Positions 4,695-19,607 of a stretch of DNA of 64,000 bases are shown one piece after another. The notes beneath the pieces were generated by a model. The model ran no database searches. It had not been told where the DNA came from and saw only the letters and a program-made list of their open reading frames with translations. This DNA comes from Agarilytica sp. (GTDB lineage Bacteria > Pseudomonadota > Gammaproteobacteria > Pseudomonadales > Cellvibrionaceae): assembly GCA_045430305.1 (NCBI GenBank), contig JAILXW010000002.1, forward strand, positions 387,953-451,952, written 5' to 3'. The position numbers and the translations under genes were made by a program. Position 1 is the stretch's first letter. Each line of letters starts with the position of its first letter.

Positions 4695-6035
4695 ATGACG
4701 CGTAAGTATTTCGGCACAGATGGTATTCGCGGAAAAGTGGGTGAAGGAGTGATCACACCGCAGTTCTTTTTGCAGTTTGGTTGGGCGCTGGGTCAAGTAC
4801 TAGAAAGGCGCAGTCAAAGCTCAGAGCCTTGCAAAGTTCTTATCGGTAAAGACACGCGTATTTCGGGTTATATGTTCGAATCTGCGCTCGAGGCTGGTTT
4901 AATCGCCGCCGGGGTAGACGTGCTCTTGCTGGGCCCAATGCCAACCCCTGCGGTGGCGTATTTAACGCGTACATTTCAAGCGTGCGCCGGTATCGTTATC
5001 AGTGCCTCCCATAACCCGTTTACAGACAACGGCATCAAACTTTTTGATGGCGATGGGACTAAGCTTGCGGATGATCTGGAGCTAGAAATCGAAGCGCAGC
5101 TCGATCAGCCTATTATCATGACGGAAAACCTAGGGCGTGCAGAGCGTGTCGACGACGCCACTGGCCGTTATATCGAGTTTTGTAAAGGCACCATGCCTTG
5201 GAACTTTACTCTTAAAGGCCTCAATATTGTATTAGATTGCGCAAATGGCGCTACTTACCATTTGGCACCAAAAGTATTTGCAGAACTGGGGGCGAATGTT
5301 TCCAACATAGGCATCACTCCTGATGGTCACAATATTAATCTTGATTGTGGCGCGACCAAGCTTAAAGAGTTGCAGAAGAATGTGCTCGAAACGCACGCTG
5401 ATCTAGGCATTGCTTTCGATGGTGACGGTGATCGTGTCATGTTTGTTGATCACAACGGTGAGGTGGTCGATGGCGATCAGTTACTGTTCATTATCGCTAG
5501 CCATCGAAAAAAAGAAAAAGGCTGTGCCGGTGTGGTTGGAACGTTAATGACCAATTACGGGTTTGAACTTGGCATGAAGGCGCTCGATATTCCCTTTCAG
5601 CGGGCAAAAGTGGGTGACCGCTATGTTATTGAAGCCATGAAGAGCAACGCGTGGCCGGTTGGGGGTGAATCTTCTGGCCATATAGTGTGTAGTGATGTGA
5701 CGACTACAGGTGACGGCATTATTTCTGCCTTGCAGGTGCTTAAGGCACTTGTGGCTGAAGAAAAGCCACTGCACGACCTCAAGCGCAATATGCAAATACT
5801 GCCACAGGTGATGATTAACGTGCCTATCGCCAATCGTATTGATTTAGATGCTTGTGAGGCGGTCCAGTCGGCTCTGAAAGACGCCGACAAACAGCTCAAC
5901 GGCAGTGGTCGCGTGCTACTTCGCCCCTCAGGTACTGAGCCGGTGATTCGGGTGATGGTCGAGGGGCAGCAGCACGATCTTGTTTCACGCCTTGCAGAGG
6001 CGCTAGCGAGCGTGGTTGGCGAGGCGGTGGCCTGA
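4695..6035 (+). CDS. glmM: Phosphoglucosamine mutase
   Basis: [16 protein letters not shown] phosphoserine loop, [22 protein letters not shown]. Confidence 0.97.
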
Positions 6036-6070
6036 TCGGCCTTGGGGGGAGAATAAAGCCTGCTAAGTTG

Positions 6071-6099
6071 TTGTATCCACACCGTTTCTCCTATACCAT
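6071..6099 (+). promoter_or_regulatory. Putative sigma70 promoter for tpiA-secG
   Basis: TTGTAT-17 bp-TACCAT followed by GC-rich ttgcgcccg. Confidence 0.5.
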
Positions 6100-6209
6100 T
6101 TGCGCCCGTTTTGCCTGGGGTAGGGCAAGCTGCGTCCTGCTCAAACCCACATAGTGGTTGGTGTCGTGGCAACAGGCGGTATGTAATTAATCGAGAGTAA
6201 GGCGGTGAG

Positions 6210-6950
6210 ATGAGACGACCCATTGTCATTGGTAACTGGAAAATGAACGGCGGTAGCGCCTTCACGAAAGACCTGCTGAAAGATATCTCAGCCCAATGGA
6301 GTGGCGCACATCAATGTGAAGCCGCTGTATGTCCGCCATACCCTTATTTGCAGGCATCTTCAGATGTTTTGCAAGGTACTAACGTTCTGTGGGGCGCGCA
6401 AGATCTTAGCATTCATGCGAACGGTGCTTATACAGGTGAAGTTGCGGCAGATATGCTCACTGATTTTGGCTGCAAGTTAGTGCTCGTTGGGCACTCAGAG
6501 CGTCGTGAGTATCATGCAGAAAGCTCAGAGCTTGTGGCGAAGAAATTTAAGGTGGCGGTTGAAGCCGGCTTAACGCCCGTTTTGTGCGTCGGCGAAAGCT
6601 TAGAAGAACGCGAGGCTGAAAATACCTTTGATGTGATCGGTAAGCAAATTATGGCCGTGATCGACCACTGCGGTTTAGACCTCGTAGCTAAAGGCATCAT
6701 TGCTTACGAACCGATTTGGGCAATTGGTACCGGAAAGTCAGCCACACCGCAAATGGCGCAAGATGTTCACGCGCATATTCGCGAAGTGCTTGGGGCCAAG
6801 GGTGATCAGATTCGTATACTTTACGGCGGTAGCGTAAAGCCAGAAACAGCCGAAGGCTTGTTTTCACAAAAAGACATTGATGGCGCGCTGGTTGGCGGGG
6901 CATCTTTAAAAGCGGACGATTTTGTTGCCATTTGTAGGGCGGCAGAATAA
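6210..6950 (+). CDS. tpiA: Triosephosphate isomerase
   Basis: GNWKMNG, GHSERR, AYEPIWAIGTG, LYGGSVK, GALVGGASL. Confidence 0.98.
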   Translation: MRRPIVIGNWKMNGGSAFTKDLLKDISAQWSGAHQCEAAVCPPYPYLQASSDVLQGTNVLWGAQDLSIHANGAYTGEVAADMLTDFGCKLVLVGHSERREYHAESSELVAKKFKVAVEAGLTPVLCVGESLEEREAENTFDVIGKQIMAVIDHCGLDLVAKGIIAYEPIWAIGTGKSATPQMAQDVHAHIREVLGAKGDQIRILYGGSVKPETAEGLFSQKDIDGALVGGASLKADDFVAICRAAE

Positions 6951-7003
6951 TAAGCACGAAAGAGAATTTACATAAGCGTAAATAGCTTAAAAAGAGAAGA
7001 GTA

Positions 7004-7420
7004 ATGGAAAATTTAATCATCCTATTTCACGTGTTAACAGCATTGGCTATTGTTGGTTTGATCATGCTACAGCAAGGTAAAGGTGCCGAAATGGGAGCGT
7101 CTTTTGGCGGCGGTGCTTCGCAAACGTTATTCGGTTCAGGCGGCTCTGGGAACTTTTTCGCGAAAATGACAGCGCTTGCAGCTGTTGTGTTTTTCGTTAC
7201 TAGCTTCAGCTTAGCTGTCATTGCAAAACAAAATGCTGGTATTGGTGATGACGAAGTTCCTGTTGTTGAAGAAGTACCTGTAGAAATAGAAAACACTGAC
7301 GACATTCCTGAAATTGAAGATACCGCAGCGGCTGATGACATGCCTGAATTGGTTGAAGAGGCTGTTGAGGGTTTGAAGGCAGACCTTGAAGAGGCTGCAG
7401 CAGAAATTCCAGAAGAATAA
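7004..7420 (+). CDS. secG: Preprotein translocase subunit SecG
   Basis: LQQGKGAEMGASFGGGASQTLFGS, two TM helices, acidic tail; follows tpiA. Confidence 0.96.
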   Translation: MENLIILFHVLTALAIVGLIMLQQGKGAEMGASFGGGASQTLFGSGGSGNFFAKMTALAAVVFFVTSFSLAVIAKQNAGIGDDEVPVVEEVPVEIENTDDIPEIEDTAAADDMPELVEEAVEGLKADLEEAAAEIPEE

Positions 7421-7967: not shown

Positions 7968-10900
7968 GTGTATACTGAATCCACAATCATTAAAATACAA
8001 ATAACCCTATTGGCAAGGGTGTCAGGGCTGCTGATGTCATTTCTGTTTAAGTGTTTTTTCACGCTTTGCCTTTCTTATAGCGTAGCGGTGTCTGCCAACA
8101 ATCATATTTCTGGCGGAGAAGGCTTTAGCTTTACGCAAGAAGAGATGGCGTGGCTAAAGCAGCATAAACAGATTCGCGTTGCCTTTGATGGTTATTTTCC
8201 ACCGTACAGCTTCCTTAATGAGAATGGTGAAGTAGAAGGCTTTGCAGCCGATATTTTTAAACTGATGGAGGTGCGCCTCGGTATTCAAGTGGATGTTCAC
8301 GCTCAATATCATTGGAATGCAATCTATAAGTCTGCACAAGAAAAGAAAGTTGATGTAGTAGCTTCAATGGTTCAGCGGCCAGAAAGGGCAGAATGGTTTT
8401 TGTTCAGTGAACCATATATTCATAAATCTCTGGTGGTTATTGCGAGAGAGGATGATGAGCGATTTAACGTCCGAAATGATATTCAAAATAAAAGCATCGC
8501 ACTGGTTCGCGGGTACCAATACGTAGAGAAAATACTCGACGAGTTTCCATCGTTGCAGCCGGTGTATGTTGACACGATGATCGATGCGCTAAATGCGGTA
8601 TCGGTAGGGAGTGTTGATGCGGCCATTTCGTTTCTTGGTGCCGGGCATTATTATCGAAATAAATACCTTTTATCAAATTTAAAATACGCAGCAATATTCG
8701 ATAAGAAAAGCGCAAATGAAAGCATTGCTATCAGAAAAGATTGGCCTGAGTTTGCCTCGATTCTAAATAAATTTGTTAAGAATATACCAGAAAGAAAGTT
8801 GCAAGAAATGCGTGATCGTTGGTTGCCGGTCGAGTACATGGAGAACTTGGTTGATGTGCATCTTACCGAAGAAGAATTGGCGTGGATAAATGCACACCCA
8901 AAAATACGATTGGGGGTTGACCCGGAGTTTGCGCCGTTTGAATTTATAGAAAACGGTAAGTACCTTGGCATGGTGTCTGACTATATCAAGATCTTAAGTT
9001 TGCGACTTAATATAAATATGGAGGTCGTTCCCAATTTGACATGGGATGAGGCTGTTAACAAGGTAAAGAAAAAAGAGCTAGATGTTCTACCCGCTGTAGG
9101 TAAAACAGAGCAACGTGAAAAGTTTTTGGGTTTTACGCAACCGTATTTAAACTTTCACCGGGTTATTGTGTCGCGGTTAGATTCGCCATTTATCTCTGGT
9201 TTGAATGACTTAGATGGTATGTCTGTAGCGGTTCAAAATAGAACCTCCCATCATGGGTTTGTCGAAGAGAATACAGCTTTATCGCCCGCTTTATATAATA
9301 GTTTACAAGAAACGCTATTGGCGGTTTCTGGTGGAGAGGCTGATGCGATGATTGGTAACGTCGCTTCCGCTACATATTGGATTAGAAAACTAAATCTTTC
9401 GAATTTGAAAATAGCGGCGCCTGTTTCTATGGATGTACAGAGTTTGCATTTTTCTGTTCGGAAAGACTGGCCGCAGTTGGTTTCTATCCTTGAAAAAGGG
9501 TTGCAGACGTTTACACCTCGTCAACATAAGCGAATATCAGAAAAGTGGCTGACGGTTGAATACAACCCGGAAGTTAATTTTGGTTATGTATGGAAATTGC
9601 TGGTAGCCGCCGGTGTAGCGCTAGTGTTGTTTGCGCTCTGGAATATTATGTTGAATCGAAAAGTTAGATTGCGAACAAGTCAGCTATCGTATTCGGCGAA
9701 TTATGATCGAACGACAGACCTGCCTAATCGATTTTTAATGCTTGATAGGCTGTCTCAATCCATCGCAGAAGCCAAAATAAAGAAAGAAAAGTTGGCGGTT
9801 TTGTCTGTTGATTTGAATGAGTTCAAAAAAATCAACGACAATTTTGGGCATCACGCAGGTGACCGACTTTTGAAAGATGTTGCGTTTCGACTAAAAGGGA
9901 GCTTTCCCAACGAAACGACCGTGGGTCGAATGGGGGGGGACCAGTTTCTTATTATTGTCTCACATGTAGAAGACGCGGCAGATATGGCTGTGTTGGCAGA
10001 AAATATACTCGCTGAGCTGCAAGGGAAGTTTGTCATAGGCGGTGAAGAGCTTGTTCTGACCTCGAGTCTAGGCATTTCGATGTACCCTGGGGATGGTGAA
10101 GATGCCGAGACCTTATTGCAAAATGCAGATTCAGCAGTACATTTTTCTAAAGCAAATAAAAGAGGCGGCTATGCCTTTTATACGAAGGATTTAATCGAGC
10201 TTGTGTCGCGCCGCGTACAGCTAGAACAATGTATGCTTGGGGCGCTAGAGCGAGGCGAGTTTGAGGTTTTTTATCAGCCGAAAGTCGATACAAACTCAAG
10301 AAAGATTGTGAGTTTTGAAGCGCTGTTACGTTGGTTTAGCCGTGACTTAGGCGAGGTCTCGCCTGTTGAGTTTATTCCCATTGCTGAAAAGAATGGCATG
10401 ATTGAGCCGATAGGCGAGTTTGTACTAGATGACGCCTTAAAGAGGCTGAAGGATTGGACAAGCGCCTACGACCCAAATTTTACTGTTGCAGTGAATTTAT
10501 CGCCAATTCAATTCTACTCTCAAAATTTGGTGATAAAGATAGAGAAATTTCTTGCACAAAGTTCTTTGTCTAGCAGAGCTCTAGAGTTAGAAATTACCGA
10601 AGGCGTTTTGCTAACCGGGTCGAAAGAAGTTGAGAAAACGTTAAAAAAATTGGAAAGCTTGAATGTGACGCTAACCATGGATGATTTTGGAACAGGTTAT
10701 TCCTCCATGAGTTATCTTCGTAAATTCAATTTTGATACGATTAAAATTGACCGGGAATTTATTATGGATCTTCCGGGTGACTATTCAGATAAACAGCTCG
10801 TGTCAGCGACAGTTGCCATGGCGCATGGTTTGGGTATGAATGTTATTGCAGAAGGCGTTGAAACTGAAGATCAGTACGCATTTCTTTTGGGGCTTGAGTG

Positions 10901-10988
10901 CGACGTGATGCAAGGCTGGTTGTTTAGTAAAGCCCTTCCTGTCAACGAAATCACTAAAATTCTCCAGAGTGGAAGTCATTTTTTGTAA
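7968..10988 (+). CDS. Membrane c-di-GMP signalling protein: two periplasmic solute-binding domains, TM helix, GGDEF (GGDQF) and EAL domains; start may be ATG 8034
   Basis: Two similar BvgS/EvgS-like repeats (IRVAFDGYFPPYSF and IRLGVDPEFAPFEF), TM helix VWKLLVAAGVALVLFALWNI, GRMGGDQF, EALLRW, DDFGTGYSS, AEGVE. Confidence 0.9.
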   Translation: MYTESTIIKIQITLLARVSGLLMSFLFKCFFTLCLSYSVAVSANNHISGGEGFSFTQEEMAWLKQHKQIRVAFDGYFPPYSFLNENGEVEGFAADIFKLMEVRLGIQVDVHAQYHWNAIYKSAQEKKVDVVASMVQRPERAEWFLFSEPYIHKSLVVIAREDDERFNVRNDIQNKSIALVRGYQYVEKILDEFPSLQPVYVDTMIDALNAVSVGSVDAAISFLGAGHYYRNKYLLSNLKYAAIFDKKSANESIAIRKDWPEFASILNKFVKNIPERKLQEMRDRWLPVEYMENLVDVHLTEEELAWINAHPKIRLGVDPEFAPFEFIENGKYLGMVSDYIKILSLRLNINMEVVPNLTWDEAVNKVKKKELDVLPAVGKTEQREKFLGFTQPYLNFHRVIVSRLDSPFISGLNDLDGMSVAVQNRTSHHGFVEENTALSPALYNSLQETLLAVSGGEADAMIGNVASATYWIRKLNLSNLKIAAPVSMDVQSLHFSVRKDWPQLVSILEKGLQTFTPRQHKRISEKWLTVEYNPEVNFGYVWKLLVAAGVALVLFALWNIMLNRKVRLRTSQLSYSANYDRTTDLPNRFLMLDRLSQSIAEAKIKKEKLAVLSVDLNEFKKINDNFGHHAGDRLLKDVAFRLKGSFPNETTVGRMGGDQFLIIVSHVEDAADMAVLAENILAELQGKFVIGGEELVLTSSLGISMYPGDGEDAETLLQNADSAVHFSKANKRGGYAFYTKDLIELVSRRVQLEQCMLGALERGEFEVFYQPKVDTNSRKIVSFEALLRWFSRDLGEVSPVEFIPIAEKNGMIEPIGEFVLDDALKRLKDWTSAYDPNFTVAVNLSPIQFYSQNLVIKIEKFLAQSSLSSRALELEITEGVLLTGSKEVEKTLKKLESLNVTLTMDDFGTGYSSMSYLRKFNFDTIKIDREFIMDLPGDYSDKQLVSATVAMAHGLGMNVIAEGVETEDQYAFLLGLECDVMQGWLFSKALPVNEITKILQSGSHFL

Positions 10989-11132
10989 TGTTCAGTGTAA
11001 GGCGCGAAAACTCGCATGTGTTTTTTGTATGAATGCTTAATACACTGTTCGTTGGGTCGCGGTGTTGATGGTGCTGCTAGCTTTGGTGGTCAGAGGAGTG
11101 TGCGCTTTATGTTGTGGCAACGGAAATTTATT

Positions 11133-12017
11133 ATGCGAATATCTGCCTTTATCTTTCTAGTTGTTTATCCATGTATGACAACTGCGGCAGGTTTTTCAGC
11201 CAACTTTGAACTGGGCGCATTATATGATTCTCGCCTGGCTTTGGATGAGCCGGATTTTACATCAGAAAGTAGCGATTCTGCATTGTCTTATTCTGCGTAT
11301 GGAGAGTGGAAAGAAAAAGTTGATAAAAATACCGAGGTTCGAGCAGACTTCTCTCTTTTTGAAGTTCGTCAAAATGAGTTTGAGGAATATAATTTACGCT
11401 CACTTTTATATGGGGCTGCACTCGTCCACGCCCGTTGGGATGCGGACCTCGGTCTAGAAGCGCATCATTCTCAGACTGAATTAGATGGGTCTGAATTTCT
11501 TAGTATTACGACATTAAATCCATATTATTCTCGGTTTGTTCGGGAGTCGATCTATATGCGGCTAGGTTGGGAACACACCGAAAAAATTTACGTTGATAGT
11601 TCAGATCAAGACGCCTCTAAAAATTCGTTTTCATCGCACTTTTATGTTTTTTCTAGAGATGGAAAGAATTATTTTTTACTGGCATATAGGGTTGAGAATG
11701 AAGATGCAAAAAACTCTGTTTATGATGCAAGTGAACACTACTTGCGTTGTCAGTGGACGCAAAAGAGTATGTGGCGTGAACGATCTGTTGTCTCTAGGGT
11801 TGGGGCCTCCTATGAAATAAGGAAATATAAAAATAACTTAGAGGAATACGGGGTTGCAGATGAAAAGCAGGTTGCGCTCTATGTTGAATCGCAACTATAT
11901 CTTAGTGCTAATACTTATATTCGTTTAAGGCTGGAGTATGAGGACAATGCCTCAGACCTTTCTGACCAAGATTACCATCGACATGTCATTGAAAGTGCTT
12001 TTGGAATGGATTTCTAG
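11133..12017 (+). CDS. Outer-membrane beta-barrel protein, possibly Slam/DUF560-like; start uncertain (11016, 11112 or 11133)
   Basis: Signal-peptide-like N-terminus (MRISAFIFLVVYPCMTTAA), alternating aromatic/hydrophobic beta strands throughout, C-terminal ...ESAFGMDF ending in Phe. Confidence 0.65.
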   Translation: MRISAFIFLVVYPCMTTAAGFSANFELGALYDSRLALDEPDFTSESSDSALSYSAYGEWKEKVDKNTEVRADFSLFEVRQNEFEEYNLRSLLYGAALVHARWDADLGLEAHHSQTELDGSEFLSITTLNPYYSRFVRESIYMRLGWEHTEKIYVDSSDQDASKNSFSSHFYVFSRDGKNYFLLAYRVENEDAKNSVYDASEHYLRCQWTQKSMWRERSVVSRVGASYEIRKYKNNLEEYGVADEKQVALYVESQLYLSANTYIRLRLEYEDNASDLSDQDYHRHVIESAFGMDF

Positions 12018-12028
12018 CCTCATCTGAG

Positions 12029-13507
12029 TTACAGCGGTACTTGAATAAGACCGCTGCCATATACCTCGTCAGCGCCAGTTTTTCCTAGATCTTTCGTATT
12101 ATTAATTAATGTACCAATAATATTTTCGCTAGACGCCGTGCTTTCAATGTACGCGGCGAGTGCTGATGCGAAAGGCACCGCGAACGATGTTCCAGAAGAG
12201 GTGGTGTATTGGTTGTCTGGCGCGGCGTGTTTAATATTGACGCCGGGAGCTGCGACATCAATATAATCACCTCTGTTAGATTTAAAATAAGCCTTAAGCT
12301 TTTGATTGACAGCCGTGACCGCCACCACAGACTGATAAGCTGCCGGGAATACAGGCGGCGCCGTTGGGCCGTTATTGCCTGCGGCTGCAAGTATTGTGAT
12401 GCCTCGTTTGTCTAAGCGCTCGATTGCGTACTGCAGTAAGCTGTTTTTAGGCCCGGCCAAGCTCATATTAATAATTTTTACATTCTCTTGCGCGAGCCAA
12501 TCAAGCGCGAGCAACAGGCTCTTAACGCTTGCTGCGTGTTTTATTTCGGGTGTGTTATAAAACACGCTGGCGCTGTAAAGCCTCACATTCGGTAACAAAC
12601 CTTGATAGCGCTTCGAACTGCCTACTAGCATTGACGCAATCGCAGTGCCGTGGTGGTTCGGTTCGTTCAAGTTCTTTTCAACAAACGAGCGTTGACGAAT
12701 ATTCGCGTTTTTAAATACTTCGTGCGAGAGTTCAACGTGTGTGTCTATGATACCAATTGCCATATTGTTAGAGGCTGAGACTGATTTAAAGTGTAAAGCA
12801 CTTCGAGGCTCCCAGGCATTGTTTGGGTTCTTTTTAGGGTTCGCCTGGGTTTGAAATAAATGGTTGTAGTCAATCGCTGAGTTTCCCATAATTTCGAGTT
12901 TTTCTTGCTTTGCCTGGCTAAGTGTTTTGTTTTCAGGTTCTTTGATCTCTAATAACACTTTGCCGAGTGATTTTAGTGTGGTGGATTGGATTATCTCAAA
13001 GCCACTGCGTTCCAAATTATTTACAGTACTTGCATCCGTCAGAATGAGCCATTGCCTTTGTAAGCGATAAAACCCCTGTTTGTTTTGGGTGATATCGTGG
13101 AATGTGGTGGCCTTGTTGTGCTTGCGAGATTTGCTCTTACCTTGACTGCTATTCGGGTTCAAGCTTGCAGCTGATTCGCTTTTGATAGTTTCAATAGCTT
13201 CCTTGCGCAGCTCAGGGTCTTTCATGACGCTGCTCATGCCTTTGCTCTCTATCGATTTGGAGAGTTGTTTTTCAATACGTTTTTCTAGCTGCTTCTCAAG
13301 CCCCTTGCCAATAGTCTTTTCCGCATTCTTTTCCGTGCTTCGTGAGGCTCTGTTTTCGAGAGCTATGTCGCTTTGAGCGAAAGCCAGCCCAAGGCCGTGC
13401 GGGCAGCTTACTGAAGCGGGAATAACGGCCACGATGGCAAAAATCAGGTATAACACCTTGATTTTTATGGCAAAAAGAAATAATGGGTGCGGGCTTTCAG
13501 TACGCAT
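12029..13507 (-). CDS. Secreted subtilisin-like S8 serine peptidase with long N-terminal extension
   Basis: Catalytic triad GIIDT (Asp), HHGTAIASML (His), SGTSFAVP (Ser); oxyanion Asn in AAAGNNG; hydrophobic N-terminus; AAGGA RBS before ATG 13507. Confidence 0.92.
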   Translation of the reverse strand: MRTESPHPLFLFAIKIKVLYLIFAIVAVIPASVSCPHGLGLAFAQSDIALENRASRSTEKNAEKTIGKGLEKQLEKRIEKQLSKSIESKGMSSVMKDPELRKEAIETIKSESAASLNPNSSQGKSKSRKHNKATTFHDITQNKQGFYRLQRQWLILTDASTVNNLERSGFEIIQSTTLKSLGKVLLEIKEPENKTLSQAKQEKLEIMGNSAIDYNHLFQTQANPKKNPNNAWEPRSALHFKSVSASNNMAIGIIDTHVELSHEVFKNANIRQRSFVEKNLNEPNHHGTAIASMLVGSSKRYQGLLPNVRLYSASVFYNTPEIKHAASVKSLLLALDWLAQENVKIINMSLAGPKNSLLQYAIERLDKRGITILAAAGNNGPTAPPVFPAAYQSVVAVTAVNQKLKAYFKSNRGDYIDVAAPGVNIKHAAPDNQYTTSSGTSFAVPFASALAAYIESTASSENIIGTLINNTKDLGKTGADEVYGSGLIQVPL

Positions 13508-13551
13508 ATTTTGCGTCCTTTATAAAACTGTTAATTGTTAACCATACTACT

Positions 13552-13580
13552 GTAAACGTGATAAATAAAAAAAGTATTCC
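13552..13580 (-). promoter_or_regulatory. ECF-type promoter, copy 1 (drives S8 peptidase)
   Basis: Minus strand GGAATAC-15 bp-CGTTTAC, about 45 bp upstream of the S8 ATG. Confidence 0.75.
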
Positions 13581-13586
13581 CCGAAT

Positions 13587-13615
13587 GGAATAACACATCG
13601 GTTTGATCCGTTTAC
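13587..13615 (+). promoter_or_regulatory. ECF-type promoter, copy 2 (autoregulation of sigma/anti-sigma)
   Basis: GGAATAA-15 bp-CGTTTAC, 29 bp upstream of the sigma ATG. Confidence 0.78.
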
Positions 13616-13644
13616 GCACCAGAAGGCAAAAATAAAGGTAATCC

Positions 13645-14175
13645 ATGGAATCTGCCCAAAATGTACTAAGGCGTGAGCTGAGTCGGCTACGCAGGTTTGC
13701 TTATTCTCTCACGGGAAGTGCCGCCGACGCCGACGATTTAGTGCATGACCTCGCAGTAAAGATTCTTGAAAAGGGCCTGCCCGACATGCCGGACCCAGTG
13801 CCTTGGATGATTACCTTATGTAAAAATCTGTGGATCGACGAATTAAGGTATCGGGCTGTGCGGTCGCGGAAAAACTCTGATGGCGCCGGTTCAAGCGGTG
13901 GTAGTTCTCAAAGTGATGGCAGCGAGGCGATGGACGTGAATGTTGAAGTGTGTAACAGCCTGAATAAAGTGTATTGCCATCGGGTTGTGGAAGGCTTACA
14001 AGCGCTACCAGAAGGGCAGCGCGTTGCGTTGAGCCTAGTCACCATAGAAGGGATGAGTTACGCAGAAACTGCAAAGGTGCTGGATGTGCCCATTGGGACT
14101 GTGATGAGTCGTGTAGCACGTGCTCGTGCCATGTTACTTGAAATTTTCAGTGATAAAACTGAGACGACATTATGA
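13645..14175 (+). CDS. ECF sigma factor
   Basis: Region 2 LRRFAYSLTGSAADADDLVHDL...WMITLCKNLWIDELR and region 4 LPEGQRVALSLVTIEGMSYAETAKVLDVPIGTVMSRVARAR; 176 aa with no region 3. Confidence 0.95.
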   Translation: MESAQNVLRRELSRLRRFAYSLTGSAADADDLVHDLAVKILEKGLPDMPDPVPWMITLCKNLWIDELRYRAVRSRKNSDGAGSSGGSSQSDGSEAMDVNVEVCNSLNKVYCHRVVEGLQALPEGQRVALSLVTIEGMSYAETAKVLDVPIGTVMSRVARARAMLLEIFSDKTETTL

Positions 14176-14954
14176 ATGACATTGATCTAGAAATACTATC
14201 CGCTTACATTGATGAAGAATTGGACGCACCCCAAACAGACGCTATAAAGCAACGTTTGGAAAATGATCCTGCGCTTCGTATGGTGTATAAAAAAATGCAC
14301 ACCGATAATCAACTCATTAAGCAAAGTATCTTTTTGATCGACGAAAGCCCCGTGTCGCCACGATTAAATGCCCTGCTAGATTCAGCCGATACAGCAGTCT
14401 CAGTGGAATCGCGTGGCAGCATTATCATGTCTTTCTTCAATCAACTTAAAAGCATTTTTACCGTTCCGAAAGAAAGTCTCTTTTGGCCTTCAGCTGCAAT
14501 GGCATCTGTGTTGTTTGTCATGGTCTCGATCATCTATTTCAATACCAAAGCAATACATGAAGATGTGGTAAAACTTAGCGTCTCTGGCAAGTTGGTGCCC
14601 GACTTAATCTCATCGAGTTTGAGTACAGCAGTGTCAGGCAGTGAAGTTCACATTTCTGATTTTACGGTTAAGCACAAACTGGCGTTTATGCGAGACGATA
14701 ACGTGTTGTGTAAGCAGTACGAAGTGCGCTCCTCTAATGAGTTGGTCAATGCGGTCGCGTGCTATTCAAATGGTGATTGGCGTAATACAGTGGTAGAGCG
14801 CTCCACTATTTTAAGCGTTGAAGAAAATACCTATCAAACCGCTAGTGGTGATTCCGGCTCATTTGTAGATAACTACATTCAGGAAAAAATCAAAGATATT
14901 CCTCTTTCTTCTATGGAAGAGCGAGCATTGCTAGATTCAAAGTTGGCGAAATAG
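14172..14954 (+). CDS. Transmembrane anti-sigma factor
   Basis: ATGA overlap with the sigma stop; N-terminal LSAYIDEELDAPQ anti-sigma-like helices, one TM helix, periplasmic domain with CKQY...AVAC...W. Confidence 0.82.
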   Translation: MNDIDLEILSAYIDEELDAPQTDAIKQRLENDPALRMVYKKMHTDNQLIKQSIFLIDESPVSPRLNALLDSADTAVSVESRGSIIMSFFNQLKSIFTVPKESLFWPSAAMASVLFVMVSIIYFNTKAIHEDVVKLSVSGKLVPDLISSSLSTAVSGSEVHISDFTVKHKLAFMRDDNVLCKQYEVRSSNELVNAVACYSNGDWRNTVVERSTILSVEENTYQTASGDSGSFVDNYIQEKIKDIPLSSMEERALLDSKLAK

Positions 14955-14988
14955 CCGCCAAAATCAATTCAATTATTGAGCAATTCAT

Positions 14989-15017
14989 GGAATAAGCTCA
15001 GTTACCCACGCGTTTAC
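14989..15017 (+). promoter_or_regulatory. ECF-type promoter, copy 3 (drives the DUF4382-like lipoprotein)
   Basis: GGAATAA-15 bp-CGTTTAC, same elements and spacing as copy 2. Confidence 0.78.
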
Positions 15018-15081
15018 TTCTTACAAGCCGAGAAATACATGCTCTGCTTCTGTATCTGTCAATACTCATAAGGTGATAAAA

Positions 15082-15978
15082 ATGAAACATTTTCTCGCAG
15101 CTCTTTTCTCTCTAACACTTATCGCGTGTGGTGGTGGAGGTGGAAGCGGATCTGACGGAATGGGGCGATTGGTCGTTGGCCTAACAGATGCGCCCGTTGA
15201 TAACGCAGATGCTGTTGTAGTGACATTTGATGCAATCTCTATCAAGCCTCAAAGTGGGCCAGCAGTCGATATTGAATTGGTCGAAGCGATGTCGATCGAT
15301 GTTTTATCTTATCAAGGCGAAGACAGGGTATTGTTGCTAGATGACGTCGCCGTAGAGCCTGGTGATTACAACTGGATGCGCTTGTCTGTTATTGAAGAAG
15401 ATTCCTATATTGAGATCGATGGGCTGCAATTTCCGCTTGAAATACCAAGTGGTGCAGAGCGGGGTCTACAGCTAAACCAAGGCTTTGGTGTGGCGGCAGG
15501 GGCAGTGACAGATTTCACCTTAGATTTTGATTTGCGTAAATCAGTCCACCAAGAAGGCACTGGTGACTATAAGCTTCGCCCAACTATCCGCGTGATAAAT
15601 ACTCTAGAAATGGGGAGCGTTTCGGGCACCGTGGCGGCAGACTTAATTAATAGCGAGCTATGTAATAATGGCGATAACAATGATACCGGCAACGTCGTGT
15701 ATTTCTTTAACGGTACAGATCAAATCCCACAAGATGAACAAGGTGCTGAAGGCGATCCCGCTTTATCGGCTTCGGTCACATATAACAGCGAGTCTGATAC
15801 TTACGAGTTTTTGGCTGGTTTTGTCGCAGTGGGTAACTACACTGCTGTATTTACCTGCGATGCCAGCTTAGATGTAGCGACAGAAAACAATTCTGATGTG
15901 GTGCTATTTGGAGACCCGATAAATGTCAGTGTCACGCTAGGTGAGCGTTCAACGATAGAATTTACTGCGAGCCTATAA
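15082..15978 (+). CDS. DUF4382-like lipoprotein
   Basis: MKHFLAALFSLTLIA-C lipobox, GGGGG linker, LVVGLTDAPVDNADAVVVTF, LDFDLRKSV...YKLRP, which I recognise as DUF4382-like. Confidence 0.75.
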   Translation: MKHFLAALFSLTLIACGGGGGSGSDGMGRLVVGLTDAPVDNADAVVVTFDAISIKPQSGPAVDIELVEAMSIDVLSYQGEDRVLLLDDVAVEPGDYNWMRLSVIEEDSYIEIDGLQFPLEIPSGAERGLQLNQGFGVAAGAVTDFTLDFDLRKSVHQEGTGDYKLRPTIRVINTLEMGSVSGTVAADLINSELCNNGDNNDTGNVVYFFNGTDQIPQDEQGAEGDPALSASVTYNSESDTYEFLAGFVAVGNYTAVFTCDASLDVATENNSDVVLFGDPINVSVTLGERSTIEFTASL

Positions 15979-16109: not shown

Positions 16110-17018
16110 ATGCCTGAGAAATATTCATATTTTTTTAAAATGATGGGATCTTTGTGTCACGTGCAGGTTTATGCCGAAGACCAGACGAGTGCGAATAAAT
16201 ATTTTTCATATGCCAAATCAGAACTGGATCGTATCGAGCGTAAATATTCTAGAGATAATAAGTTTAGCGTCGTAAGCCAAATTAACGCATCGTCTGGCAC
16301 AGGTAGATCTGTAAAGTTAGACAGCGAAACGCGCTATTTGGTGGATTACGCAGAGCGAATATACAAACAAAGTAATGGAATGTTTGATATTACTACAGCG
16401 GTTCTACGTGATTTATGGAATGGAAAAAATGGAGTTGAACCAAGCCAAGGAACATTGGAAGAAACACTCATTAATTTAACGGGTTGGAATATTGTTGGCT
16501 GGGGTGGTGGCGAGATACTCCTGCCAGAAACCGGAATGAAAATAGATTTTGATACATTTATCAAAGAATATGCGGCAGACAAACTCGTAAAAATACTGGG
16601 CTTGCAGGGCGCGCCTTCTGTATGTGTTGATTTAGGTGGTTCCGTTGCCGTGAGTGGTCCAAATCTAGATGGGGGGCCGTGGAATATTGAAGTTGCCAGC
16701 CCTTGTGACACGCTAAAGATTATTACTGAACTACCAATTGTTTCAGGTGGTCTCGCGGGGAATCATGGTGTTGGCCCGTCTTCTGAATCTGGCTTTGATT
16801 CTTTTGGACAACTGTATTGTCCAAAAACTGGTTTGCCTGTGCACTGTGAATCCGTGGTGAAGGTTCAGGCTGAGCGGTGTTTGGTTGCCGGGGTCATTAC
16901 TGCTATCGCAATGTTGCAAGGGGAAGAGGCAGGAATCGACTGGCTGTCGAAGCTTGGTATTCCATTTATAGTGTATAGACCAGATGATGACCGTATAGAG
17001 CACAAAAAAATTGCTTAA
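16110..17018 (+). CDS. Divergent ApbE-like FAD:protein FMN transferase homolog with no signal peptide and degenerate motifs
   Basis: FKMMGS, RIERKYSR, SNGMFDIT, KEYAAD, LGGS, PKTGLP and CLVAG follow the ApbE pattern, but several canonical active-site residues are replaced. Confidence 0.72.
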   Translation: MPEKYSYFFKMMGSLCHVQVYAEDQTSANKYFSYAKSELDRIERKYSRDNKFSVVSQINASSGTGRSVKLDSETRYLVDYAERIYKQSNGMFDITTAVLRDLWNGKNGVEPSQGTLEETLINLTGWNIVGWGGGEILLPETGMKIDFDTFIKEYAADKLVKILGLQGAPSVCVDLGGSVAVSGPNLDGGPWNIEVASPCDTLKIITELPIVSGGLAGNHGVGPSSESGFDSFGQLYCPKTGLPVHCESVVKVQAERCLVAGVITAIAMLQGEEAGIDWLSKLGIPFIVYRPDDDRIEHKKIA

Positions 17019-17089: not shown

Positions 17090-17770
17090 TTATGCGCTGT
17101 GCAAGGCCAGGTCAGAAATTTTTAGGTCGTTTTTGGGGCTTAAGTTTTCACACTGAGCAAGGAATAATTCGGCGGTCGCACGTGCGTCACTTAATGCGTT
17201 ATGCTCGGTCAGTGGGGGAAGATTGTATCTCTCTCTACATAGATTAAGTTGCAGTGAATCTCGACGGTTTTGCATGGAAAGCCTTTTCTGCTCTATCTCA
17301 AGGGTATCTAGATATGTAAATAGCAGGGGGCAACCCACTGTTTCTAGTGCAGCCTTTTGCAAAAAAGCGATGTCGAGAGGTGCATGGTGAAAAATAATAA
17401 TTTTGTTTAAGGCGTCACGAATAAAAATACTTAGCACTTTTCCAACGCTTGCAGCGCCAGCAACACGTGAATCATGTAGGCCATGAATTTTGGCGCTATT
17501 GCTAACACCGCTCTCAGAATAAATGAGCATATGATTAGATTTTCCAAGAATCACTTTTTTTGCGCTTATCTCAATCCAGCCAATACTTAGAAGAGAGTCT
17601 TTTGCTGGATTTAACCCTGTCATTTCACAGTCGACGGCGAGAAAGCTAGATTCAGAAATAGAGGAAGATGTGGTTGGGAAAGAGGATTCATACAGGTCGG
17701 AAAATACGCCCTTGCGTGCTGTTTGTTTCCAGCGCGATTTCTTTAATTGATATTTCAGTTTAGATAACAC
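17090..17770 (-). CDS. DEDDh 3'-5' exonuclease (DnaQ-like)
   Basis: AVDCEMTG, FHHAPLD, HNALSDARATA. Confidence 0.9.
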   Translation of the reverse strand: MLSKLKYQLKKSRWKQTARKGVFSDLYESSFPTTSSSISESSFLAVDCEMTGLNPAKDSLLSIGWIEISAKKVILGKSNHMLIYSESGVSNSAKIHGLHDSRVAGAASVGKVLSIFIRDALNKIIIFHHAPLDIAFLQKAALETVGCPLLFTYLDTLEIEQKRLSMQNRRDSLQLNLCRERYNLPPLTEHNALSDARATAELFLAQCENLSPKNDLKISDLALHSA

Positions 17771-19607
17771 CGTGTCCGAACCTGAGTTTGACAGTTTGTT
17801 GGCAGTTTCTTACCGTATTAAACGCACTTTTTAGCTGGTGACGGGTTAGAGGTGACACGCTGTCTGGGTCGAGATTGTTGCTTGGAGTGAGTCCTTTCGC
17901 TAATAGATGTTGTTGGTTTTCTAGTCTCAGAGCGGCGATAAATTCGTGTGCATCACAAAGACTGTCAGCTGTTTCTTGGTGAAGCGCTTGATGTTTTTTT
18001 AATGCTCGAATACGGTCAAGCGTGTTTACCTCGTCAATGCCTTGCGACAAGGTGTATAACCTAGCAATATCAACTATAGGTATTGTACCCCGGTGTTTCA
18101 TGTCTAAAACAGAATTATGATCGCCATCTTTTTCCAGTACAAAAGTCTTAAAAAAACCTAGGGGTGGTGAGTGGCTCAAGGCGTTTTGGGTGAGGCAGGC
18201 GAGGAAGATGCTATTGTTTTTCGCTTTTTCTAATACGGCATTACGTAAATCGCGAACTAAGCCATCGTTCCCGGTTAGCATTCTCATGTCATAAAAAATA
18301 CTAGCATGCATCAGTGCCTTTGGGTCTGGCTCTTCGATCCACTGAAAGAATTTTTTTCGCCAATCTTCTTCTCGTAAGCACCATTTTGGGTTCATTGCCA
18401 TGACGTCTCCGGGGCATAATTTTACACCGCACTGGCCAAGGCCTTCACAGACAAATTTTGCTAGAGAAAGAAAATACTGGATGTGCTCTTCATTTGCGTC
18501 GTTGGCAAGAATGAGGCCGTTGTCTTGATCTGAATTTAAAGCCTGTTCTTTTCTTCCTTGCGAACCAAAAGCGAGCCATGCGTAGGGCACGGGGGCTTCG
18601 CCTAGTCGTTTTTCGGCTAGGTGTATTAAGCGAATGGTGAGCGCATCGGTGATCGATGTAATGATACGGCCAATTTCTTCTGCTCTCACCGATGCAAGAA
18701 TGAGCTTTTCGATTAAGCTCGGAAGTTTAGTAAAGGTGTCCCGTAATTTATCGACGGAATTATCGCGTTTAATCGCTTGTATTAAAAATAATGGTTCAGA
18801 GTTTCTTGATCGAATTAGGTCGCTTAAGCTAGTAATTCCAAGTAATTTTCCTTCATCAGTGACGGGCAAGTGGTGAATCTGTTGCGACATCATCGTGAGG
18901 TAGCTTTCATGAACCGTTGCGCGAGGCGAAAGTTGAATAGGGTCGTGCGTCATGATGGCTTCAATGGGAAGCGATAGGTCTAAATTATTTGCTACAGCTC
19001 GCGTGCGTAAGTCTCGGTCAGTGACAATGCCAAGTACCTTGTCGTTTTCTGTGATTAACAAGGATGATACCTGGTGGTCCGACATTACTTTAGCGGCCCA
19101 ATGAATGGAGGTAGTGGGGCGGGTTGTGGCGACATGTTTTTGCATGATTTGAGCAATGCTTAAACCAAATTCGACATCTTGAGAAACGTTTGTACTAGGC
19201 GTTTGTATTCGACGTTTGTATTCGCGTGTGAAAAACTGGTCGAAAGTCGGGTGGTTATGACGGAGGTGTGAAAACTCTTCAAGAGAAATTTGGAAAACTA
19301 GGCCGTCTTCAAGCACCTTAAACGTGTTTATGGAATCTTCGCCGCTAAGTATGGGGCCATACCCAAAACAATCGCCGGTACTGATCCGGTCTATCAATAG
19401 GCCCTTTTCTGAACGAATTTCTACACTGCCACTGCGCAATATACGTAGGCTTTTAGGGTTACTGTTGACGTTTACTTGTTGACCTGCTTTTACGTACGCG
19501 ACTTCAATTCTTTTCGAAAGTTGTGCGAGTACACTTTTATCAACCTCGTTGAAAGGTGGGTAGAAGGTAAGAAACTCAATAACATCTTGAAAGCTATTCA
19601 TTTTCAA
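17760..19607 (-). CDS. cNMP-binding / CBS pair / DUF294 putative nucleotidyltransferase
   Basis: N-terminal cNMP-like domain (LRSGSVEI...GDCFG), two CBS repeats (GIVTDRDLR, GITSLSDL), FGSQGRKEQ...SDQDN nucleotidyltransferase motif. Confidence 0.9.
   Translation of the reverse strand: MKMNSFQDVIEFLTFYPPFNEVDKSVLAQLSKRIEVAYVKAGQQVNVNSNPKSLRILRSGSVEIRSEKGLLIDRISTGDCFGYGPILSGEDSINTFKVLEDGLVFQISLEEFSHLRHNHPTFDQFFTREYKRRIQTPSTNVSQDVEFGLSIAQIMQKHVATTRPTTSIHWAAKVMSDHQVSSLLITENDKVLGIVTDRDLRTRAVANNLDLSLPIEAIMTHDPIQLSPRATVHESYLTMMSQQIHHLPVTDEGKLLGITSLSDLIRSRNSEPLFLIQAIKRDNSVDKLRDTFTKLPSLIEKLILASVRAEEIGRIITSITDALTIRLIHLAEKRLGEAPVPYAWLAFGSQGRKEQALNSDQDNGLILANDANEEHIQYFLSLAKFVCEGLGQCGVKLCPGDVMAMNPKWCLREEDWRKKFFQWIEEPDPKALMHASIFYDMRMLTGNDGLVRDLRNAVLEKAKNNSIFLACLTQNALSHSPPLGFFKTFVLEKDGDHNSVLDMKHRGTIPIVDIARLYTLSQGIDEVNTLDRIRALKKHQALHQETADSLCDAHEFIAALRLENQQHLLAKGLTPSNNLDPDSVSPLTRHQLKSAFNTVRNCQQTVKLRFGHGVI

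Follow-up and report, generated by a model that had tools for sequence, protein, structure and literature searches.

Divergent pairs of sigma factor and serine protease genes have been described as widely conserved in group ECF26 of the sigma factors with extracytoplasmic function (ECF) (Lang et al. 2018, PMC6180224, citing Staron et al. 2009). In Sinorhizobium meliloti, overexpression of the ECF26 member RpoE6 induces the protease gene SMa0142 (log2 4.7), the anti-sigma gene ecfR6 and a few neighboring genes, and the SMa0142 promoter, GGAATAG-N15-CGTTC, is RpoE6 dependent (PMC6180224). The general stresses tested did not induce the RpoE6 targets (PMC6180224), and sulfite was found to induce the ECF26 members RpoE1 and RpoE4 but not rpoE6 (Bastiat et al.). 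ECF26 is one of the large ECF groups, and the genomic context of its protease-linked, RpoE6-type branch, which is functionally uncharacterized, has been on record since 2009. Here, we describe a stretch of 64 kb from an Agarilytica sp. genome (contig JAILXW010000002.1; the whole stretch is called the window below) that encodes a predicted ECF26 sigma factor and its anti-sigma factor, a divergently transcribed secreted subtilisin-like serine protease of family S8, an outer-membrane beta-barrel protein and a DUF4382 lipoprotein.

More distant parallels are the sigma-E/RseA/DegS, sigma-W/RsiW/PrsW and AlgU/MucA/MucD circuits, which, like the window, combine an autoregulated ECF sigma factor with a single-pass anti-sigma factor carrying a periplasmic sensor, and in which the pathway has a functional link to a serine protease. 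In none of those circuits is the site-1 protease known to be encoded divergently as a direct target of the sigma factor, and the proteases belong to the HtrA and PrsW families.

The window sigma factor (13645..14175, plus strand, 176 aa) is a small protein that contains only regions 2 and 4 (Pfam Sigma70_r2, E 6.5e-09; Sigma70_r4_2, E 4.2e-15) and scores 58 bits against the NCBIfam model TIGR02937, for which the cut-off is 42.9, as is characteristic of an ECF sigma factor. Family profiles searched against the S. meliloti pSymA region from 70 to 95 kb recovered the S8 protease at 362 bits, the sigma factor at 120 bits and the anti-sigma factor, including its periplasmic domain, at 129 bits. The rpoE6 locus is therefore homologous in all three genes, indicating that the window holds an RpoE6-type system, and the window sigma factor is assigned to the RpoE6-like subgroup of ECF26 on the basis of this homology and of its promoter. 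In both systems, the ECF sigma factor is cotranscribed with a single-pass anti-sigma factor, the S8 gene is divergent, and the promoters have a -35 element of GGAATA and a -10 element of CGT. EcfR6 has the same periplasmic domain as the window anti-sigma factor, including a Y-x-P-A-S motif, and SMa0142 has the same layout as the window protease, with a signal peptide, a low-complexity linker, a propeptide-like region and a minimal S8 domain. In contrast to the window, the S. meliloti locus is plasmid borne in a soil alphaproteobacterium and has no barrel gene within 10 kb; the SMa0142 linker is rich in D, G and S, whereas that of the window protease consists of period-4 repeats; and the accessory targets of RpoE6 are glyoxalase, DUF6065-type and hypothetical genes instead of a DUF4382 gene. 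A preliminary description of the window, made from its sequence, had stated that no characterized system of this composition was known. This was overstated, as the sigma/anti-sigma/divergent protease trio is a known ECF26 arrangement whose S. meliloti member induces the protease, and the pairing of sigma factor and protease will be no surprise to ECF specialists. The constant, TPR-less, Slam-like barrel, the protease-specific sensor domain, the period-4 repeat tether and the variable accessory regulon, here a DUF4382 lipoprotein, are absent from the literature searched, and the close link to the barrel appears to be undescribed.

The reading that we favor, with a probability of roughly 0.55, is a layered one, in which an ECF26 sigma factor controls a secreted protease that has the barrel as its probable outer-membrane partner. 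The membrane-bound anti-sigma factor would hold the sigma factor, and an extracytoplasmic signal would be read by a periplasmic domain that is found only in this subgroup. Once released, the sigma factor would use GGAATA-N16-CGT promoters to transcribe the operon that encodes it, the S8 gene divergent from it and, in this lineage, the gene for the DUF4382 lipoprotein. The conserved output would be a subtilisin-like protease that is active and Sec exported and has a propeptide-like region together with a charged repeat tether at its N terminus. The barrel would carry this protease to the outer membrane or across it, and might do the same for the lipoprotein. The transcriptional layer, in which an autoregulated ECF26 sigma/anti-sigma pair is predicted to drive directly the exported subtilase and, in this lineage, the lipoprotein, is well supported, whereas the signal, where the protease is located, the role of the barrel as an exporter and its cargo are what we infer.

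All five genes of the preliminary description are present, and their geometry was given exactly. The sigma and anti-sigma genes (the latter at 14172..14954, plus strand, 260 aa) overlap by the ATGA at positions 14172-14175. The S8 gene (12029..13507, minus strand, 492 aa) is divergent from the sigma gene, with 137 bp between them, and converges on the barrel gene (11109..12017, plus strand), the two stop codons being 11 bp apart. The longest open reading frame of the barrel begins at 11016, and the start codon is probably the ATG at 11109, which has an AGGAG 10 nt upstream, agrees with the public gene call and gives a protein of 302 aa. The lipoprotein gene (15082..15978, plus strand) encodes 298 aa from the ATG at 15082; a GTG start at 15073 is also possible.

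The motif GGAATAM-N15-CGTTTAC, searched with at most one mismatch, occurs exactly three times in the window, upstream of the S8, sigma and lipoprotein genes. The S8 promoter (GGAATAC-N15-CGTTTAC, 13552..13580, minus strand) and the autoregulatory promoter of the sigma/anti-sigma operon (GGAATAA-N15-CGTTTAC, 13587..13615, plus strand) lie back to back, the latter 6 bp from the -35 box of the former, and the lipoprotein gene is preceded by GGAATAA-N15-CGTTTAC at 14989..15017 on the plus strand. The number of sites expected by chance, estimated from 100 shuffles, is 0.09 per window, and none of the 100 shuffles reached three. The common promoter that had been noted upstream of these genes is thus real and not a product of chance, and the further suggestion of a co-regulated envelope module is borne out by one ECF-type promoter on the S8, sigma/anti-sigma and lipoprotein genes and by its footprint across approximately 70 related loci. 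The motif agrees with the published ECF26 consensus, given as -35 GGAATA and -10 GT in one study (PMC6180224) and as GGAAT and CGTC in another (PMC6527743).

In the related loci, two ECF-type promoters likewise stand back to back in the spacer between the S8 and sigma genes, with their -35 boxes a few bases apart. The promoter facing the sigma gene has the form GGAATAAA-N15/16-CGT(C/T), with 74 motif matches across 80-odd loci, and the promoter facing the S8 gene has the form GGAAT..-N-CGT(C/T/A). A regular expression found the latter, on the minus strand and back to back with the sigma promoter, in 44 related loci; in the three closest loci, an S8 promoter with a CGTA -10 element was found by reading the sequence. 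Other genes that carry the motif in related loci share a theme of secreted or surface proteins, metalloproteases among them. Copies of the motif also precede genes for small secreted low-complexity proteins that lie immediately upstream of the barrel, and the barrel gene itself thereby comes to stand behind an ECF26-type promoter, as it does in 18 of 62 loci; often it is second in line, following the gene for a secreted repeat protein. In Glaciecola sp. XM2 (L024, 3977-6684, plus strand; related loci are given L numbers here), a copy of the motif stands before the gene for an 850-aa lipoprotein that contains nine DUF5666 domains. This gene immediately precedes that of the barrel, in the same orientation, and its product is a second lipoprotein, unrelated to the DUF4382 one, with which the barrel is paired. 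Two loci from metagenome-assembled genomes of Alphaproteobacteria have the motif upstream of an HExxH protein that is a putative zinc peptidase with a weak Peptidase_Mx1 match (L028, 4118-4927, plus strand; L037, 8274-9068, plus strand), and L028 also has it upstream of a reprolysin-like M12B metalloprotease with PKD and cadherin-like domains (5067-7199, plus strand). The regulon in these genomes would include several secreted proteases. Elsewhere among the related loci, the motif stands upstream of a gene for a DUF1800 protein.

A further ECF26-type promoter was seen in about 20 Halieaceae-type loci, 300 to 450 nt downstream of the anti-sigma gene and pointing back at it (L008, about 11200-11576, minus strand; L009, about 11290-11675, minus strand; and also L011, L014, L020, L022, L023, L029, L040, L051, L052, L060, L061 and L065). 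It is followed by no conserved open reading frame, yet the region contains the conserved blocks GTGGAGTGAAAC (just after the -10 element), ATTGGGT and AGCAGGGACCGCTAGCCCTCTGC and ends in a GC-rich hairpin with a run of T that resembles a terminator. This non-coding stretch looks like a candidate ECF-dependent small RNA of approximately 250 nt; Rfam at the gathering score returned no match in the five related loci searched.

The DUF4382 lipoprotein has a lipobox, LIAC, in the context SLTLIAC|GGGGGSGS, with Cys16 followed by Gly, as is expected of a lipoprotein, and its orthologs in the L005 lineage have LVGC|GGGG at this position. The lipobox is followed by a Gly-rich tether, the DUF4382 domain (aa ~30-170; E 2e-32) and a beta-rich C-terminal part of approximately 125 aa. 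The C-terminal 121 aa matched no Pfam family at E<=10, a PDB sequence search with the lipoprotein found no relative, and an earlier guess that the C terminus forms a carboxypeptidase-regulatory-like sandwich was not confirmed. Among more than 80 loci, the lipoprotein was found only in the window, in L002 and in L005-7 (two related lineages). The orthologs in L005 and L002 also carry the motif upstream, even though these genes flank the barrel from its opposite side and are encoded on the opposite strand, and this retention despite a changed position and strand is good evidence that the lipoprotein belongs to the regulon of this clade. The DUF4382 lipoprotein is thus best described as a predicted lineage-specific member of the regulon.

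The S8 protein begins with a signal peptide that has a hydrophobic core at aa 18-33 and an AFA|Q site around aa 44, followed by a period-4 charged repeat (aa 66-90; window positions 13238-13312), a propeptide-like region from ~aa 146 to ~240 and a minimal catalytic domain at aa 247-490 (Pfam Peptidase_S8 aa 247-486, E 6e-33). A candidate lipobox, ASVSC, was rejected, as the homologs have ordinary AxA|Q signal peptides of the signal-peptidase-I type. The catalytic Asp, His and Ser residues and the oxyanion Asn (D255, H286, N378 and S441 in the window) follow the subtilisin order and are invariant in 66 of 66 homologs, and residues 14-270 of subtilisin BPN' from the PDB align to aa 236-490, which is the whole mature domain. 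Catalytic integrity and the signal peptide together make it well supported that this is an active, Sec-exported protease, as predicted from its sequence. No C-terminal sorting or autotransporter domain is present, with at most 20 aa beyond the catalytic domain in all 66 homologs. The window protease has 6 units of the repeat, [V/I/L]-E-x-x, whereas others (among L024, L048, L025, L040 and further loci) have as many as 53 in succession, and its varying number accounts for the range in protease length from 420 to 860 aa. Long repeats go with the barrel: the median longest chain is 9 in loci with a barrel, whereas the repeats are absent in nine loci without one (median, 2). A period-4 repeat of this kind is also found at the end of the small secreted proteins whose genes lie upstream of the barrel in loci of the Marinobacter, Cellvibrio and Catenovulum types, and neither these proteins nor the S8 N terminus had a Pfam match at E<=10.

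Conservation of the module was first assessed from the sigma factor, by an alignment search with one genome per species that gave 80 loci and then with profiles built from the first four loci. Relatives of the sigma factor at 70 to 45% identity occur in Cellvibrionales and Alteromonadales, and the three whose neighbors were inspected have the same arrangement of barrel, S8, sigma and anti-sigma genes. Approximately 60 of the 80 loci have the same order, with the barrel and S8 genes convergent, the S8 and sigma genes divergent and the anti-sigma gene downstream of the sigma gene. This four-gene core is found in the Gammaproteobacteria (Halieaceae, Cellvibrionaceae, Alteromonadaceae, Marinobacter, Rheinheimera, Alishewanella, Catenovulum, Glaciecola and Simiduia) and in the Alphaproteobacteria (Marinicaulis, Robiginitomaculum, Hellea, Porphyrobacter and Emcibacter). 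When all neighboring open reading frames were clustered, the sigma factor was represented in 84 loci, the S8 protease in 80, the anti-sigma factor in 75 and the barrel in 61; every other family was present in at most 17 loci, except for a 30-locus cluster of opposite-strand reading frames inside the S8 gene, which are read as shadow open reading frames. A second scan, of metagenomes, was anchored on a Halieaceae-type subset of the barrel, and thus away from the clade of the window. The S8 gene was immediately downstream of the barrel and convergent with it in 56 of the 58 loci with room for it, and, again where there was room, the sigma and anti-sigma genes were present in 24 of 25 and 20 of 21 loci, respectively. 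Co-occurrence is therefore reciprocal. The preliminary description had named co-occurrence of the genes in other genomes as a test of the module; the barrel, S8, sigma and anti-sigma genes do co-occur, whereas the lipoprotein is confined to the few loci given above. The set of five is not conserved as a unit, given that the DUF4382 gene is lineage limited and that the barrel is absent from the Rhizobiales versions; on Rhizobium and Agrobacterium plasmids, where the S8/sigma/anti-sigma trio is followed by a DUF6065 gene, no barrel was found. Cultured species that carry the module include Congregibacter variabilis, Haliea alexandrii, Marinobacter halophilus, Cellvibrio fontiphilus, Catenovulum agarivorans, Rheinheimera pacifica and Simiduia litorea.

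The barrel protein, of approximately 300 aa, has a signal peptide and ends in AFGMDF, with a terminal Phe. It aligns over its full length with the barrel of L004 (27% identity, E 7e-37), which passes the cut-off of the Pfam family SlipAM (36 bits versus 22), and SlipAM is matched by 34 of 62 barrel homologs, with a best E value of 1.7e-15. A PDB sequence-profile search found no relative of the barrel, and a scan for alternating hydrophobicity gave approximately 14 segments, which is too crude to serve as evidence. On the strength of its homologs, the barrel is probably related to the Slam/DUF560 (Pfam SlipAM) barrels, from which it has diverged and differs in lacking a TPR domain. These are the 14-stranded barrels of type 11 secretion (DUF560, PF04575), which include Neisseria Slam1/2, Xenorhabdus NilB and HrpB (PMC8406197, PMC12282271, PMC5449769). 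Like the type 11 genes, genes for window-type barrels adjoin genes for Sec-exported proteins and, in some lineages, for lipoproteins with long Gly-rich tethers. Their constant partners, however, are the subtilase and the ECF sigma/anti-sigma pair, neither of which is named in the type 11 secretion papers that were searched. The type 11 secretion literature that was searched and the main text of the ECF re-classification contain no mention of a link between sigma factor, S8 protease and barrel.

Proteases of family S8 that depend on an outer-membrane beta-barrel are known as surface proteins or autotransporters, such as NalP of Neisseria and SphB1 of Bordetella, and NalP trims surface lipoproteins that are Slam dependent. 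This trimming is a possible parallel for the window protease and lipoprotein. In NalP and SphB1, the barrel is fused to the C terminus of the protease, whereas the window protease ends at its catalytic domain and the barrel is the product of a separate, convergent gene and belongs to another family.

We infer that the protease, and possibly also the lipoprotein, has the barrel as its partner in the outer membrane, because the barrel is almost always adjacent to S8 in two classes, is akin to translocators, shares the promoter in about 30% of the loci and is correlated with the period-4 repeats. The preliminary description had suggested that the barrel handles the protease or the lipoprotein; kinship with the Slam/DUF560 family lends support to this. 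Several observations weigh against the favored reading. The window barrel has no direct Pfam match even at E<=10 and no significant match in NCBIfam, and, as 20 of 62 homologs also match BBP2_2, the family assignment is only moderately firm. Slam proteins carry an N-terminal TPR domain, whereas none of the 62 members of the barrel family matches a TPR family and the barrel alignment takes up their whole length. The known type 11 cargo domain, a C-terminal 8-stranded barrel of the TbpBBD or lipoprotein C type, was not seen in the S8 protein or the lipoprotein at the sequence level, to which this check was confined for the lipoprotein because a single-sequence AlphaFold2 model (predicted local distance difference test [pLDDT] score of 30) gave no usable fold. 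No ECF motif precedes the window barrel, where the only look-alike, TGAAT-N15-CGTT at 11030, is 2 bp short, and the correlation between repeat and barrel is confounded by phylogeny. The Rhizobiales keep the S8, sigma and anti-sigma genes with no barrel nearby, and the protease can therefore work without the barrel and may act in the periplasm. Finally, a search of sequencing runs for expression of the window found none that carries this stretch.

The anti-sigma factor was recognized through its family. The window protein has no significant Pfam or NCBIfam match (RseA_N, E 0.036; zf-HC2, E 0.12), while 32 of 52 homologs match zf-HC2 and 10 of 52 match RseA_N, with matches to DUF3379 and NepR as well; the label is supported at the family level by the zf-HC2 and RseA_N matches of these homologs. 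A family profile was needed, as a word-indexed search with the window protein returned only the protein itself. The N-terminal domain contains LSAYIDEEL at aa 9-17 and is followed by a transmembrane helix at aa 103-123 and by a family-specific periplasmic domain (aa ~134-260) in which F172, C180, C197, W203, A224 and E250 are invariant. An AlphaFold2 model from an alignment of 12 sequences predicts an alpha/beta domain in which five strands fall within aa 158-212 and helices occupy aa 144-152, 231-239 and 247-259, with pLDDT values above 90 at aa 140-210 and 231-260. Between the sheet and the C-terminal helices lies a loop of low confidence (aa 211-230), which holds the most conserved linear motif of the periplasmic domain, [YF]-x-[PT]-A-[SG]-[AG] (Y221-Q-T-A-S-G226 in the window). 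A Foldseek comparison of the full-length model with the PDB gave no match at E<=0.001 and TM-scores of at most 0.2, which may have suffered from the flexible helices, and a PDB sequence search with the anti-sigma profile gave only marginal matches to N-terminal anti-sigma domains.

It is possible, though unlikely, that the S8 protease is both the output and the site-1 protease of the pathway, cutting the periplasmic domain of the anti-sigma factor and so starting regulated intramembrane proteolysis in a self-amplifying switch, as the preliminary description had supposed. In anti-sigma factors of the RseA/RsiW type, the site-1 cut in the periplasmic domain precedes a site-2 cut by RseP. The protease and the anti-sigma domain would both face the periplasm, and the domain is strictly paired with an adjacent S8 gene: 58 loci have both, 7 have neither, 2 have the domain only and none has S8 only, and ECF26 relatives that lack S8 have a different periplasmic domain on the anti-sigma factor. 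These counts are not phylogenetically independent, and the same pairing would be expected if S8 were merely a conserved output and the sensor were tuned to a relevant signal. The S8/sigma/anti-sigma trio also persists where the barrel is absent, which argues that the conserved partner of the protease is the signaling pair. The conserved motif, with A224 in 52 of 52 sequences, sits in a loop that is probably exposed or flexible according to the structural model, although its low confidence may only reflect the shallow alignment. Cleavage is reported neither in this analysis nor in the literature searched, and we know of no characterized ECF system, whether of the RseA/DegS, RsiW/PrsW, RsiV or FecR type, whose sigma factor, once released, directly targets the gene of the site-1 protease.

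Less likely again is an arrangement of quality control or negative feedback, in which the anti-sigma factor would sense proteins or peptides in the periplasm or at the surface, such as stalled barrel cargo or foreign protein, and the protease would degrade the ligand and turn the response off. Feedback of this kind is established for envelope stress, with sigma-E and DegP. Co-inheritance of sensor domain and protease would follow from such a circuit, as would persistence of the trio without the barrel, and the secreted, low-complexity and lipoprotein genes in which the variable regulon is rich could supply its clients. However, a propeptide-like region and a long repeat tether are typical of exported proteases and not of housekeeping proteases of the periplasm, and the S8 protein has no PDZ or chaperone-like domain. 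In S. meliloti, moreover, the RpoE6 targets failed to respond to the general stresses tested (PMC6180224).

A joint reading, which goes further than the favored layered model and is accordingly more doubtful, would see in the module a new kind of proteolytic switch coupled to a new branch of type 11 secretion. It would make the subtilase the dedicated site-1 protease of its own anti-sigma factor, acting at the Y-x-P/T-A-S/G loop, while the TPR-less barrel exports cargo by way of the period-4 [V/I/L]-E-x-x repeats and not through a C-terminal barrel domain; export would lower the amount of protease in the periplasm and so set the activity of the sigma factor.

Least probable is that the trio is the whole unit and that barrel and lipoprotein are mere neighbors, the former a porin-like protein kept by inherited synteny and the latter with a promoter match of no consequence: the lack of a motif upstream of the window barrel, its weak Pfam assignment, its absence in the Rhizobiales and the restriction of the lipoprotein to three lineages would fit, but adjacency of barrel and S8 spans Alpha- and Gammaproteobacteria in which the surrounding genes all differ, in 18 of the 62 loci the barrel is downstream of an ECF26-type promoter, and the lipoprotein gene has kept its promoter after moving in L002 and L005.

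In a library clustered at 50% identity, at least 1,926 representatives belong to the anti-sigma family at E<=1e-30, which makes this a widespread, unstudied signaling unit of marine and soil Proteobacteria. The protease-coupled sensor domain, a loop motif that can be mutated and a Slam-family barrel that is almost always beside the protease in marine lineages are handles for experiments. If the barrel does export the protease, as in the layered model, type 11 secretion would reach beyond its present range, to free-living marine bacteria as well as to a new type of cargo; cleavage of the anti-sigma factor by the protease, if it occurs, would be a new design of ECF activation.

Upstream of the barrel (7968-10988, plus strand) is a gene encoding two SBP_bac_3 sensor domains, with counterparts that have a HAMP domain in L009 (4058-6436, plus strand) and in 16 other Halieaceae loci; this neighbor is not found in the closest relatives of the window, L002, L004 and L005, and may be a coincidence or a link to cyclic di-GMP signaling. 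The lipoprotein gene is followed by a gene for ApbE (FAD:protein FMN transferase; 16110-17018, plus strand), which has a copy in L002 (10899-11819, minus strand) a few kilobases from the module; it has no ECF motif and is probably unrelated to the module. Farther on (17090-19607, minus strand), a gene for an RNase T/DnaQ-like exonuclease overlaps one for a protein with cyclic nucleotide-binding, CBS and DUF294 nucleotidyltransferase-like domains. Downstream of this pair in the source contig are genes for a DUF4212 protein and a sodium:solute symporter, an arrangement that resembles the usual neighborhood of an acetate permease.

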